Notes: generated by a model from the letters alone, not told the origin. Positions 15,408 to 37,243 are shown, counted from the first letter of the stretch. The stretch is DNA of 64,000 nt from Vitreimonas sp. (GCA_035627515.1 DASPLQ010000012.1:1344517-1408516); one strand, 5' to 3'. Program-made: numbers and translations.

Positions 15408-16368
15408 ACGCTAAATACTGGACTGTCGGTTGATTATTGCGGTCTAAAAAGGTGAAGTTACTAAACGGACCAGGATCGCCACGCAATAAGAATGGTGTCA
15501 CCGCGATCACTTGCGGATGTGACCAGACATGTTGCAAAGCATACAAGTAATACTCTTCTAGCCAACGTGAGGTTTGGCGATTAGCTATCCACCCCGTTTC
15601 TGTAATCATAACTTGTAAATCACGCCCTGTCTTATCTTTGATAAATTTTAATTCGTGTTCAAAACCACGCAACGAGTTCTGAGCAGTTCGTTCCGGTGAC
15701 GAGCTAAAGCCAGGATTAGGGTAAGAATGTGAGTTCCACACATCTATCTTATGAAAAATATCTGGGTTATAGGCGTGCATGCGATTTAAGTAGGTAAAGG
15801 CTTCCATGGTTTCTGTCCCATTCGGAGCTGCTAAGTCCATAGCAGCAGGCAAGACCACAAAGTTTTTACCTTCTGCATGAGCCCAATCGGCAGCAAAACT
15901 TAAAATGTCGGCATACTCTTCAGGGTTGATGGTACCACCCCATTCCTTAGCGTGATTAACTTCATTGAACATTACGACGTGACGTTGATCAGTGGGCCAG
16001 TCTTGTTTCTTCAAAAACGTCATCAACAACACAATTTCTTTGCGATTGGGCACTTTCCAAGCTCCATTTTCAAATCGGGAGGTCAGCCGGACGATGGGAA
16101 TAATCTTTTTTTCTTTGGCTGCATTTAAAAAGCCTTGCCATTCATCTTTTTTATCCAAATCATTCAAACTTAAAGGAATTGTCACATACTGCCACTCATC
16201 TGGCTTGGCCTCATCAGTGATTAATTTTTTGGCATCATCAATTTCATAAGGGTGGAGAATATGGACACCTAACACATCGCCCGAAGCAGCGGATACTAGA
16301 GTAGGGAAACTCAAAAAGCTCGTTATAACGAGCAAACCTAAAATGAGTGATTTAAAGCCCCATTTCAT
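15370..16368 (-). CDS. Secreted glycoside hydrolase, GH5-like (cellulase/mannanase superfamily)
   Basis: Signal peptide (LLVITSFLSFPTLVSAAS). NE-type acid/base motif (MFNEVNH). Nucleophile motif ITETGW, as in GH5 clan A. Confidence 0.6.
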   Translation of the reverse strand: MKWGFKSLILGLLVITSFLSFPTLVSAASGDVLGVHILHPYEIDDAKKLITDEAKPDEWQYVTIPLSLNDLDKKDEWQGFLNAAKEKKIIPIVRLTSRFENGAWKVPNRKEIVLLMTFLKKQDWPTDQRHVVMFNEVNHAKEWGGTINPEEYADILSFAADWAHAEGKNFVVLPAAMDLAAPNGTETMEAFTYLNRMHAYNPDIFHKIDVWNSHSYPNPGFSSSPERTAQNSLRGFEHELKFIKDKTGRDLQVMITETGWIANRQTSRWLEEYYLYALQHVWSHPQVIAVTPFLLRGDPGPFSNFTFLDRNNQPTVQYLAFKKAVQRARSGS

Positions 16369-16417
16369 AATTATAGGATATCATTTTTTAAGGCATTTGT
16401 CGAGGTTTGGATACAGA

Positions 16418-17158
16418 ATGAAGAGTTTGGTATACTTAACAGAAATGAAACGTTTATTTCTGGCTTACGCCTGGATGTTACTGACTGCAGGCGCGATGTT
16501 AACCTTAATTGCGGCTGTCCAGGTGTACGGTTTTCATACCCAAGTTACTACCCAAGCCAAGATACTTCATCCTGTCTTAACCGCTAGTGCTCAAGAACTG
16601 GACTCTACAGACGAAATAGGGGAGGTGAAAGGGATGGCAATTGTGGCTGAAGTGGATGATGCTCGACCTCAAATTGTGGCTAATTTCCTCAAGCGCTATA
16701 AATCACCACTTGAACCCCACGATTACTTTGGTCAATTTTTAGTTGATACAGCAGATAAAAATGGTCTTGATTTTCGCCTGCTTCCGGCGATTGCCATGCA
16801 AGAAAGTAACTTGTGTAAAAAAATCCCTGAAGGTAGCTATAACTGTCTTGGCTTCGGCATTCACTCTAGAGGTACCTTAGCATTCGAGAGTTATGAAGCA
16901 AACTTTGAGCGCGCCGCTCGCGAGCTGAAAAAGAACTATATTGATATTGGTTTAACCACTCCAGATCTGATCATGAAAAAATACACTCCCGGCAGTAATG
17001 GCAGCTGGTCTAACTCCGTGAAACAATGGATGGCAGAAATGCGCTATGATGACCGCAAATTAGGCAAAGCCCTGAAAACAGACACCAGTGTCCTCGAGTT
17101 CGCCGAAAGTTCTGAAAGTACTTCCTCTGCTTCACCAGCTCCCTCTTCCACACCTTAG
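16418..17158 (+). CDS. Membrane-anchored lytic transglycosylase-like (SLT-domain) protein
   Basis: N-terminal TM. LLPAIAMQESNL resembles the SLT catalytic E-S motif. Start trimmed to avoid overlap with the divergent gene. Confidence 0.5.
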   Translation: MKSLVYLTEMKRLFLAYAWMLLTAGAMLTLIAAVQVYGFHTQVTTQAKILHPVLTASAQELDSTDEIGEVKGMAIVAEVDDARPQIVANFLKRYKSPLEPHDYFGQFLVDTADKNGLDFRLLPAIAMQESNLCKKIPEGSYNCLGFGIHSRGTLAFESYEANFERAARELKKNYIDIGLTTPDLIMKKYTPGSNGSWSNSVKQWMAEMRYDDRKLGKALKTDTSVLEFAESSESTSSASPAPSSTP

Positions 17159-17221: not shown

Positions 17222-17250
17222 TTGACAGACTTATAATATTTTGATATAGT
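17222..17250 (+). promoter_or_regulatory. Near-consensus sigma70 promoter (TTGACA-N17-TATAGT) driving the candidate sRNA
   Basis: TTGACA at 17222-17227; TATAGT at 17245-17250. Confidence 0.6.
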
Positions 17251-17257
17251 TTGATTA

Positions 17258-17366
17258 CCTCAGAAGGTCTCCCTCACCGGGTTGAAAGCCTTACTTCGGT
17301 AAGGTGTGAACGGCAGTACGTTCTGAGTAAAATAGCCCTCCGAGCTCAGCTCGGGGGGCTTTTTGT
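17258..17366 (+). ncRNA. Candidate small structured RNA (~110 nt), unknown family
   Basis: Predicted transcription start ~7 nt after the -10 box. Closing stem ctcagaa/ttctgag encloses a UUCG-capped hairpin ccttacttcggtaagg. Ends in an intrinsic terminator gccctccgagctcagctcggggggc + ttttt (17334-17366). No ORF with RBS. Confidence 0.5.
17334..17366. terminator. Bidirectional intrinsic terminator shared by the sRNA (+) and tRNA-Leu(TAG) (-)
   Basis: GC-rich palindrome with a T-run on the plus strand and a weaker A/T run on the minus strand. Confidence 0.6.
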
Positions 17367-17455
17367 TGGTGCCGAGAACAGGAATCGAACCTGCACGCCT
17401 TTTGAAGGGCACTGGATTCTAAGTCCAGCCTGTCTACCAATTTCAGCATCTCGGC
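17367..17455 (-). tRNA. tRNA-Leu(TAG), CCA encoded
   Basis: Reverse-complement reads gccgagatgctgaaattggtagacaggctggactTAGaatccag...ggttcgattcctgttctcggcacca. Long variable arm. Confidence 0.85.
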
Positions 17456-17569
17456 GTTTGTGCTGAAAAATAATTCGCTTCGGTTGCGAGTACGCAAATC
17501 TCAGCTCATTATTTTTCTTCACTCACATTATTTCTCACTCACTTAGTTACTCGCTCAATCAATTACTTC
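17456..17569. repeat. Right copy of the ~115-bp inverted repeat (partner 305-422), directly upstream, in gene orientation, of tRNA-Leu(TAG)
   Basis: See the left copy; the 48-bp core is identical. Confidence 0.85.
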
Positions 17570-17616: not shown

Positions 17617-18294
17617 ATGTTTGAGTATATTCATAAAACTAACCCTCGTTCCCGTTCTTTTCGGATTACAGTAGCTCCTAATGGTGATGTAATTGTCAGT
17701 ACTCCTAGGTGGTATATGCCAGGATCGTTGCAACAGTTTTTAGAACATAGTGCTGGCTGGGTAGAGAGAACTAAAGCTAAAATGATGAGCCGAAAAACGC
17801 ACGCTTCAAATAATCAAAGCGTGAATATTTTTGGCAAAGCCTATGAAAAAAAGGTTGAATATTCAGCCCGCCACCGGGTTGGAATTCGCATTGAGGGTAA
17901 ATCACTCATTCTCAATCCAACCTCACCACAATTAACTACTTGGAATGCGGCTGCTGAAAAACAACTCAATACTTTCTTAAAAGCCACTGCTGAAAAATAC
18001 ATTATTCCCCGCACCCATCAATTGGGTGAGAAAATGGCTACCACTTTCCGGCACATTACACTGCGAGAACAAAAAAGTCGCTGGGGCAGTTGTAGCAGTA
18101 CTGGGAATCTCAATTTTAATTGGCGACTTGTCCATTATGAGCCACCCATTATTGATTACGTAATCATTCACGAATTGGCTCACCGCACACATATGAACCA
18201 CTCAGCTGCTTTTTGGAATTTAGTCGCAAAATATGACCCCGCTCATTTACAACACCGGGGGTGGTTGAAACGCAATGGGATGAGTCTGGGGTAA
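17617..18294 (+). CDS. YgjP/DUF45-family metal-dependent hydrolase (WLM/SprT-like zincin)
   Basis: C-terminal HELAHRTHMNHSAAFW motif characteristic of DUF45. Confidence 0.65.
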   Translation: MFEYIHKTNPRSRSFRITVAPNGDVIVSTPRWYMPGSLQQFLEHSAGWVERTKAKMMSRKTHASNNQSVNIFGKAYEKKVEYSARHRVGIRIEGKSLILNPTSPQLTTWNAAAEKQLNTFLKATAEKYIIPRTHQLGEKMATTFRHITLREQKSRWGSCSSTGNLNFNWRLVHYEPPIIDYVIIHELAHRTHMNHSAAFWNLVAKYDPAHLQHRGWLKRNGMSLG

Positions 18295-31793: not shown

Positions 31794-33071
31794 ATGGCAA
31801 GTATCCAAGGTTTATATGGCCGTGAAATTCTTGATTCCCGAGGTTTGCCCACGGTTGAGTGTACACTTTGGCTCGATACTGGCGCCGTCGTTGTCACCAG
31901 CGTACCCTCCGGAACTTCCAAAGGTAAAAATGAAGCTCTTGAATTACGGGATAATGACTCCAACTGGATGTGGGGCCATGGCGTCACTCAAGCTGTCAAT
32001 AATTTAAATACTGTCATTGCTCCTGCCTTGATCGGCAAAGATCCCACTCAACAAGAAGAAATTGATCAACTCTTAATCAGCTTGGATGGGACTCCCAACA
32101 AAAGCAAGCTCGGTGCCAACAGTTTATTAGCCGCTTCCCAAGCCGTACTCAAAGCTGCTGCGGCCAGCGTCAATCAACCGTTATATTACTATATTCAACA
32201 AAAGTATCAGTTAGCGGCTACCCTTGATATGCCGAGCTGTATTTACTGTTTAATTAATGGCGGTGAACACGGCGCTGACAACCTTGACATTCAAGAGTTC
32301 CACATCATTCCTGCTAGTCACACTGATTATCCTACGTCACTCAACATGGCGGTGTTGTTATTTCATAACTTAGAAGAGGTTTTGATCGCCAAAGGGGCCA
32401 TTCACTCAGTGGGTCTACAAGGCGGATTTGCCCCTAATTTATACAATAACACTGACGCTTTTGAAATTTTAATTGAAACCATCAAAACTTCTCCCTATAC
32501 CTTTGCCCAAGATTTATTTTTTGGCGTCGATATCGCCGCATCTGGATTGTTTCAAGCAGGAAAATACCACCTCAAAGACAAAACTCAAGCCTACAACACT
32601 CAAGAATTAATTGAGTACTACAAATCGATGCGCAATTTATATCGCGTGTTTTATATCGAGGATCCCTTTGAGGATAATGACGAAGCTGGGTGGGAAGCCT
32701 TGACTAGTGAAATGGGCGAAACCACTTTGATTGTTGGTGATGACTTACTCGTTACGAATAAGGCCAAAACCCAGCATGCAATCGATAAAAAGCTATGTAA
32801 TGCTATTTTAATCAAACCCAACCAGGTAGGAACGATCACCGAAACTATTGATGTCACCAAGCTCGCTCGTGAAGCTGGTTGGCAAATCGTGATCTCTCAC
32901 CGGAGTGGTGAGACAGGCGACGACTTCATTGCTGATTTTGCGGTGGGAGTGGGTGCGGAATACGTCAAGTTTGGTCCGGCTAATCGTGGTGAACGCGTAG
33001 CTAAGTACAATCGATTATTACAAATCAACGCTGAGCTCGCCCAAATGAACCAGCCATCTGCCAATGTCTGA
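31794..33071 (+). CDS. eno: Enolase
   Basis: N-terminus ILDSRG. SHRSGETED-like motif (SHRSGETGDDFIADFAV). Confidence 0.9.
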   Translation: MASIQGLYGREILDSRGLPTVECTLWLDTGAVVVTSVPSGTSKGKNEALELRDNDSNWMWGHGVTQAVNNLNTVIAPALIGKDPTQQEEIDQLLISLDGTPNKSKLGANSLLAASQAVLKAAAASVNQPLYYYIQQKYQLAATLDMPSCIYCLINGGEHGADNLDIQEFHIIPASHTDYPTSLNMAVLLFHNLEEVLIAKGAIHSVGLQGGFAPNLYNNTDAFEILIETIKTSPYTFAQDLFFGVDIAASGLFQAGKYHLKDKTQAYNTQELIEYYKSMRNLYRVFYIEDPFEDNDEAGWEALTSEMGETTLIVGDDLLVTNKAKTQHAIDKKLCNAILIKPNQVGTITETIDVTKLAREAGWQIVISHRSGETGDDFIADFAVGVGAEYVKFGPANRGERVAKYNRLLQINAELAQMNQPSANV

Positions 33072-37120: not shown

Positions 37121-37243
37121 CTTACAAAAACAAATTGATCTATTTAGACCATCTAAGATGTAATTGTCACTTCGGCCTTACTTCGGTTACCATGGTTTTA
37201 TTCGGGATTCATACGCCCCAATAAAAAGCGTAAAAGGAGTTTC

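Follow-up and report, generated by a model that had tools for sequence, protein, structure and literature searches.

Locus and genomic neighbourhood

A gene for a predicted peptidoglycan hydrolase and a convergent tRNA-Leu(tag) gene flank a promoter, a structured region and an intrinsic terminator in the stretch of DNA analysed here (64,000 nt, referred to below as the window). The elements of the locus are as follows.

16343..17158, plus strand: upstream gene, coding for a membrane anchor and a putative GH73-like N-acetylglucosaminidase (the GenBank version starts at ~16445 and has 237 aa)
17222..17250, plus strand: whole σ70-type promoter, which aligns with that of six relatives identified through synteny
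17222-17227, plus strand: -35 element TTGACA, from a consensus scan
17242-17243, plus strand: TG extension of the -10 element
17245-17250, plus strand: -10 element TATAGT, separated from the -35 element by a 17-nt spacer
17259..17265, plus strand: 5' strand of stem P1, CUCAGAA, pairing with 17321-17327
17266..17268, plus strand: conserved GGU; G17266 is opposite G17320, and G17267-C17319 and U17268-A17318 are paired
17271..17281, plus strand: apical element CCC-UCACC-GGG, a UCACC pentaloop closed by C-G pairs, which defines the family
17282..17316, plus strand: 35-nt insertion containing the hairpin GCCUUAC-UUCG-GUAAGG at 17288-17304 (alignment A3)
17317-17320 and 17321-17327, plus strand: conserved UACG and the 3' strand of P1, UUCUGAG (alignments A1 and A3)
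17334-17360, plus strand: stem of the intrinsic terminator (whole element 17334..17366), with 12 bp, 9 of them G-C, a 3-nt loop and then a T run
17367-17455, minus strand: tRNA-Leu(tag), found by ARAGORN and Rfam; its encoded CCA ends at 17367, and it is a syntenic neighbour that lies outside the RNA

The promoter matches the consensus at 11 of 12 positions and carries the TG dinucleotide, in agreement with the original prediction of a TTGACA-17-TATAGT promoter. We infer that transcription starts near A17257. Positions 17257-17365 very probably constitute an sRNA gene that is transcribed on its own, with a predicted product of ~109 nt. The closing stem CUCAGAA/UUCUGAG, the UUCG-capped hairpin and the GC-rich terminator hairpin followed by a T run, all of which had been proposed for this RNA, are indeed present in the sequence at the positions given above. 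Homologues (see below) have terminators at the same place, with different sequences. It had also been proposed that the terminator serves tRNA-Leu(TAG). The tRNA is convergent, its 3' end facing the terminator of the sRNA; however, read on the minus strand, the hairpin has just AUUUUAC behind it and would therefore be at best a weak terminator for the tRNA.

The predicted folding energy of a 112-nt stretch at the locus is -50.9 kcal/mol, versus -32.7 +/- 3.6 kcal/mol in 200 dinucleotide shuffles (z = -5.1), and none of the 200 shuffles folds as well. As had been noted earlier, the region is free of a credible ORF: the sole overlapping ORF (17251-17466, with a TTG start) crosses both the terminator and the antisense tRNA and is thus spurious. 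A search of the whole window with Rfam 15 at gathering thresholds gave no match at the sRNA locus, and at E<=10 only terminator-driven noise was seen there; riboswitch classes were rejected, with no Rfam match at either setting. Rfam to E<=10 returned no match to 4.5S/SRP, 6S or tmRNA, and ARAGORN none to tmRNA, so the judgement by eye that the RNA is none of these was upheld, and the covariance-model search assigns it to no known family. With its own promoter, an intrinsic terminator, a covarying structure and no conserved ORF, the locus has the generic features of an sRNA gene. As a separate observation on the window, TATAA, GTATA and ATAAT are among the most enriched 5-mers at positions -22..-2 of 66 predicted start codons, and AGGAG is found at 7 of the 66; with gene starts crudely predicted, this suggests that many mRNAs of the window are leaderless or have very short leaders.

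The product of the upstream gene gave no Pfam or NCBIfam match. Its profile matches PDB entry 8yxk_A, a phage cell-wall hydrolase (E=1.6e-5), and the top Foldseek matches of its AF2 model (pLDDT 78) are 8yxk, LytB, AtlE and FlgJ, with an N-terminal transmembrane helix ahead of the GH73-like fold. On the strength of these models, the protein is predicted to be a membrane-anchored GH73-like peptidoglycan hydrolase. It was considered as an RNA-binding partner of the sRNA and rejected in view of the GH73-type glucosaminidase fold and the membrane anchor. The protein family has ~2,000 members, the named ones being from Woesebacteria and Pacebacteria. This ~230-aa family was also observed to be Microgenomates-specific, with an identity of 55-65%, above that of its neighbours.

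Among the matches listed in the scans described below, a hydrolase homologue lies directly upstream of the sRNA and on the same strand at 46 of 52 loci. Four of the remaining six loci are too short to tell; at the two complete ones (L064 and L105), the RNA and its promoter stand behind other genes. The gap between the stop codon and the -35 element is 63 nt in the window, has a median of 55 nt in the 46 loci, and is only 0-30 nt in 13 of them. No terminator-like site was found in the window between the stop codon at 17158 and the promoter. Because the gap is too short, the hydrolase mRNA would usually lack a terminator ahead of the sRNA, and it probably ends in the same element as the sRNA, the two being co-transcribed. 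The original prediction named, as an outcome that would count against it, that in relatives the region belongs to a longer mRNA or 3' UTR. This is borne out in so far as the upstream gene is usually without its own terminator, but the conserved near-consensus promoter argues for a separate transcript.

On the other side of the sRNA, again among the matches listed, tRNA-Leu(tag) is found ~50-800 nt downstream at 30 of the 52 loci, 24 times convergent and 6 times co-directional. A role of the RNA as an attenuator of the co-directional tRNA-Leu genes was rejected, since these carry their own -10 boxes and most tRNAs at that position are convergent. Different genes were observed between the sRNA terminator and tRNA-Leu(tag) at three loci (L005 2700-3010, L006 3135-3713 and L009 2495-2737); the inserted genes code for an 89-aa membrane protein, a 192-aa LRR protein and an 80-aa ORF. 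This stretch looks like a variable or insertion spot.

Conserved hairpin and extent of the family

The neighbouring YgjP-like protein (17617-18294) has thousands of relatives, of which the few that are named come from Patescibacteria. DNA around six of these relatives (49-59% protein identity) was taken as a syntenic set. The gene order is the same in all six: a NUDIX or HD gene, a minus-strand glycosyl hydrolase gene, the gene for the ~230-aa protein and an intergenic stretch, which in every case holds a TTGACA-16/17-TATANT promoter, the hairpin and a terminator. Since the six loci were retrieved without RNA information, they provide independent evidence of conservation.

The conserved unit is a hairpin of 35-45 nt, which consists, in this order, of the covarying 7-bp stem P1, a mismatch (G.G or G.U), one G-C and one U-A pair, the short stem P2, and the loop CC-UCACC-GG. 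Its consensus, CUCAGAA-G-GU-(2-7 nt)-YC-UCACC-GG-(2-7 nt)-AC-G-UUCUGAG, is derived from alignment A1, which comprises 45 distinct homologous hairpins from genome and syntenic loci. At the 13 specified pairs of A1, 93.3% of cells are paired versus 76.9% in shuffles, and 72 cells have a double change versus 17.5 in shuffles, a number that none of 500 shuffles reaches; pairing falls to 28-52% when the partner strand is slid. Compensatory changes occur in six of the seven P1 pairs among the 45 homologues. Thus, on comparative alignment the basal stem covaries, and RNAalifold predicts the same hairpin independently. The covariation of P1, together with the promoter, hairpin and terminator in all six syntenic relatives and the lack of an Rfam match, strongly supports the original prediction of a stand-alone structured sRNA outside the known families.

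Beyond P1, at least 90% of the 45 hairpins of A1 retain the first G of GGU, while the second G and its C partner (G14-C46) are invariant (45/45) and the U-A pair is present in 37. The mismatch partner of the first G is G in the long type and U in the short, single-hairpin type. The loop and its two closing C-G pairs are also invariant in A1, and of 17 metagenome copies retrieved without any constraint on the loop, 16 retain CUCACCGG and one reads CUCACCAGG. Judged from this conservation, the apical loop CCUCACCGG is the conserved core of the RNA and the putative determinant of its function. The CUCA of the loop fits the YUNR pattern. Two architectures exist: the hairpin is either accompanied by a separate terminator or, as a single hairpin directly followed by a U run, is the terminator itself. 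In one subgroup (L042, L049, L064, L082, L102 and L109), the terminator loop CUGGACAGG was observed to be conserved across otherwise different stems and may be a second functional motif. Resemblances seen by eye to group II intron domain 5, 23S H71, the sarcin-ricin loop, the S15 G.U/G-C motif and an anticodon-loop mimic were dismissed as unsupported.

The extent of the family was estimated from two pattern scans. A scan of one genome per species with the pattern promoter-N(15-35)-YCTCACCGGR listed 120 matches, at least ~50 of which are clear homologues; ~70 were rejected as non-CPR, being chance matches or other elements. A metagenome scan, in which the promoter and CTYRGAAGG were specified and the remainder was left free, gave 17 true copies amid many chance matches that contain a Shine-Dalgarno sequence. 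Overall, clear homologues were found on at least ~70 genome and metagenome contigs. Covariance model R1, run on 564 kb, gave 50-57 bits (E 1e-13 to 1e-15) for each of 15 complete copies and 37.6 bits (E 6e-9) for a copy cut at a contig end; the sole other match was a weak reverse-strand echo at a true copy (20.6 bits, E = 0.004). No second copy of the sRNA was detected by R1 in any locus examined. A phage origin was rejected, as none of seven IMG/VR pattern matches was a true copy.

Among the matches listed, all homologues with a resolved host lineage are from Microgenomates (OP11, Patescibacteria). The hosts are labelled Pacebacteria, Beckwithbacteria, Chisholmbacteria or "Microgenomates group", and further homologues carry just the label Patescibacteria or an evidently wrong one. 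Many contigs whose gene content plainly marks them as CPR/Microgenomates were seen under the labels 'uncultured Pseudomonadales', 'Vitreimonas sp.' and 'Limisphaerales' (L021-L125, P0001/P0121); the GenBank taxonomic labels of such MAGs are unreliable. Literature searches returned no description of the hairpin RNA family and no small RNA reported for CPR/Patescibacteria. We conclude, with high confidence, that the hairpin RNA represents a new sRNA family, the Microgenomates UCACC-loop hairpin RNA.

Two other elements were observed in the course of this work. In Roseburia/Lachnospiraceae (L028, L043, L045, L117, L119, L126, L130 and L131), an element GUAGAGUAUCCACUCUCACCGGAGCAC...GUGACUCAUGG stands behind consensus promoters; it matches the Rfam L20_leader below threshold (25.3 bits versus 58.7) and may be a divergent L20 leader. 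In Pyrinomonadaceae (L041, L055, L057, L071, L076 and L093), a consensus promoter is followed by the 5' leader CCCCGCGC..CCUCACCGGAGCUAACC, which precedes an ORF starting ATGGCTAATCC(C/T)GAACATCTTGAGATT. This arrangement is found in several MAGs, twice in one of them, and suggests a gene family that is present in several copies and shares a conserved leader.

The window copy and its insertion

Window positions 17272-17280 read CCUCACCGG, and model R1 recognises only the 11-nt apical element of this copy, as a local match at 17271-17281; no global R1 match was obtained in the window with filters off. The full-length match is missing because of the 35-nt insertion at 17282-17316, and membership of the window copy in the family therefore rests on alignment, promoter and synteny rather than on the model score. 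CUCAGAA-G-GU (17259-17268) and AC-G-UUCUGAG (17318-17327) align column by column with the six relatives and correspond to the majority residues of A1. The genomic context is also that of the family, i.e., a position 3' of a GH73-like hydrolase gene, a near-consensus promoter and a terminator. From this alignment and context, we consider that the window copy is a divergent member of the family. Large insertions can thus conceal family members from covariance-model searches.

The insertion is absent from all six syntenic relatives (A3), whose RNAs are shorter than that of the window, and from all other copies extracted; the closest relative by protein (P0002, 67% identity) is outside this comparison, its contig ending before the RNA. 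In thermodynamic models, the window copy departs from the family structure: the conserved CCC/GGG loop stem is predicted to pair with a probability of just 0.01-0.02, the ViennaRNA fold leaves much of the motif unpaired, and a family-like three-way junction is 3.4 kcal/mol less stable in a constrained fold. The original prediction laid emphasis on the UUCG-capped hairpin. That hairpin is real, but it belongs to an insertion found only in the window copy among the copies seen, whereas the conserved core is the apical loop.

A 13-mer of the inserted hairpin, GCCTTACTTCGGT, had been reported to recur in the lexA 5' region. It does recur upstream of lexA, as a single extra copy in the window, though at 37175-37187 and not at 37178-37190. 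The recurrence is probably due to chance, because ~100 overlapping 13-mers set against 128 kb give an estimated ~0.2 chance recurrences. The copy upstream of lexA was seen to be embedded in CTTCGG repeats (cacttcggccttacttcggtt). The possibility of a repeat element was rejected, given the single extra copy of the 13-mer and the lack of a second R1 match in the window.

Proposed mechanism and alternative readings

By analogy with Yfr10/Yfr1, we tentatively regard the RNA as a constitutive trans-acting riboregulator that pairs through its C-rich loop, a reading that is possible rather than probable. A near-consensus σ70 promoter at the 3' end of the hydrolase gene would drive a short RNA, produced constitutively and abundantly. 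The 3' end of this RNA would be formed by a separate intrinsic terminator or, in the single-hairpin subtype, by the hairpin itself and its U run, and the upstream mRNA, having no terminator of its own, would end in the same element. The RNA would act in trans via the almost invariant C-rich apical loop, in which a CUCA U-turn (YUNR) would present CACC(G) for fast pairing to mRNAs, or to another sRNA, with GGUG(AG)-like sites. The 35-nt UUCG hairpin of the window copy would be a tolerated expansion 3' of the loop, outside the mechanism.

In cyanobacteria, the Yfr1 motif is conserved through almost the whole phylum and is displayed by Yfr10 in the apical loop of a stem; Yfr1 is expressed constitutively and highly, both RNAs pair with many mRNAs and with Yfr2, and they act through the invariant CUCCUCAC motif (PMC6778093). 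The RNA described here shares with Yfr10 (RF02362) a single stem-loop with a C-rich, near-invariant apical motif followed by an intrinsic terminator and, with both Yfr10 and Yfr1, the conservation of that motif over a whole large lineage; CCUCAC is common to both motifs. Yfr10 is also the best sub-threshold Rfam resemblance, at 24.9 bits on canonical copy L100 versus a threshold of 43; neither the window copy nor the short-type copy L101 gave a Yfr10 match. The two RNAs differ in phylum and in motif (ACUCCUCACAC there, (Y)CUCACCGG or CCUCACCGG here), only CCUCAC or CUCAC being common. Stems are poorly conserved in Yfr10, in contrast to the conserved stem nucleotides and fixed mismatch seen here, and neither a Yfr2-like partner nor targets were found here. 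The comparison is one of analogy rather than established homology.

MicL and DapZ are 3'-UTR-embedded sRNAs with promoters of their own. As in our case, they lie at the 3' end of a same-strand gene, share its terminator and have their own promoter at or just past the gene end. However, they are enterobacterial, Hfq-dependent and stress-induced (by sigma-E for MicL) and seed through single-stranded 5' regions, whereas the RNA described here has a housekeeping-consensus promoter and a conserved hairpin loop, and its co-transcription with the upstream gene is inferred. The architecture of the locus thus resembles that of promoter-bearing 3'-UTR sRNAs, while the presumed logic resembles Yfr10. That YUNR loops speed antisense pairing is established, as reported by Franch and co-workers in 1999, and the plasmid and phage antisense RNAs CopA, RNA I and Sok likewise have a stable hairpin with a 5-7 nt YUNR (here CUCA) loop as the most conserved part. 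These antisense RNAs are cis-encoded and have an obvious target; none is nearby here, and no copy was found on a viral contig.

Searches for targets, which used small samples and covered only 64 kb of the source genome, were negative. The loop complements GGUGAGG, CGGUGAG and CCGGUGA occur at chance level in the 64-kb window; in 292 kb flanking 52 copies, 149 loop-complement words were observed versus 214 expected, with no positional conservation. Duplexes between the loop and 66 start regions of the window were no better than those at random sites (mean -5.9 versus -6.7 kcal/mol), and no convincing duplex was predicted between the RNA and the tRNAs of the window, including the linked tRNA-Leu(tag). 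Other findings also count against pairing: the exposed loop is just 5-7 nt long, the invariant stem nucleotides beyond it (GG, C-G and G.G/G.U) are not needed for a simple seed scaffold, and the conserved CCC/GGG loop stem of the window copy is not formed in the thermodynamic model. A perfect hairpin made of the loop motif and its complement, UCUCACC-GGAG-UGGUGAGA, was observed at 32895-32920 within a CDS (31794-33071); it is probably coincidental.

The stem platform is more readily explained by a protein or tertiary contact than by a passive scaffolding function, and protein binding is therefore almost as likely as pairing, although doubtful in itself. The hairpin would serve a conserved Microgenomates protein as a specific ligand, decoy or scaffold. 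This protein would read the UCACC loop together with the G.G/G-C/U-A platform and be titrated or delivered by abundant free RNA, and it might bind, as a second site, the hairpin that ends the hydrolase mRNA. Invariance that reaches into the stem (G14-C46 in 45/45, G13 in at least 90%, a fixed G.G/G.U position), platform-loop spacing that varies by a few nucleotides only, and complementary sequences that are enriched nowhere examined all speak for protein binding, and a consensus, apparently constitutive promoter would suit a housekeeping ligand. Against it, no candidate protein was found, the sole tightly linked gene codes for an extracytoplasmic peptidoglycan hydrolase and not for an RNA-binding protein, and the 35-nt insertion between loop and platform would alter the geometry unless stacked as a third arm. 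It is improbable that the hairpin is mainly a cis element, a 3'-end terminator or stabiliser of the hydrolase mRNA with a secondary promoter-like sequence, even though it stands directly 3' of the hydrolase gene at 46 of 52 loci (four of the six exceptions being too short), has its -35 element a median of 55 nt behind the stop codon (0-30 nt at 13 of the loci), with no space for another terminator, and in one subtype forms the terminator together with its U run. The hydrolase family and the RNA also appear to have the same taxonomic range. However, an invariant loop, a fixed mismatch and, in most copies, a second dedicated terminator are not needed for termination or stabilisation. A purely cis role is made less likely by this loop, by the consensus TTGACA-16/17-TATANT promoter kept in six of six relatives that were retrieved without reference to it, and by the two loci (L064 and L105) at which RNA and promoter follow other genes.

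A reduced or divergent form of a known housekeeping RNA (SRP/4.5S, 6S, tmRNA, Y-like, or an rRNA fragment acting in trans) would also have a consensus promoter, one copy per locus examined and class-wide conservation, and UCACC is found in the 3' tail of 16S rRNA, GAUCACCUCC, as was observed in one 16S on a Chloroflexi contig and is the case more generally. SRP 4.5S RNA (RF00169) in particular is, like our RNA, a single irregular hairpin of ~80-110 nt with a strong promoter and one copy, often beside tRNA genes. Nevertheless, this origin is highly improbable. The window copy and two canonical copies gave no Rfam match to SRP, 6S, tmRNA, Y RNA or rRNA at E<=10, and ARAGORN finds no tmRNA. The GNRA tetraloop of SRP domain IV and its symmetric and asymmetric (AGCA/GGA) loops are absent, the loops here being UCACC and UUCG. 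Neither a tRNA-like domain with a tag ORF, as in tmRNA, nor a ~180-nt helix with a central bubble, as in 6S, was found, and the 35-45 nt core is far too small for either RNA. A bolder proposal, which we regard as quite unlikely, is that the hairpin departs from the usual mRNA-targeting riboregulators and is instead an essential, lineage-specific housekeeping RNA of Microgenomates: a ligand or subunit of a conserved protein complex, or a mimic of the 16S-tail UCACC that titrates a factor acting at the ribosome end, its production being coupled through the shared 3' end to a cell-separation hydrolase. If true, a major lineage of uncultivated bacteria would possess a core RNA of a new class.

CPR/Patescibacteria represent a large part of the diversity of bacteria; their genomes are tiny, and almost none of them is in culture. 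Covariance model R1, a motif to mutate, and a genetic partner, the hydrolase whose mRNA would end in the same element, are now available. Whether it pairs or binds a protein, the UCACC-loop hairpin RNA would give a first point of entry to RNA-based regulation, or to an RNA-protein complex, in these bacteria.
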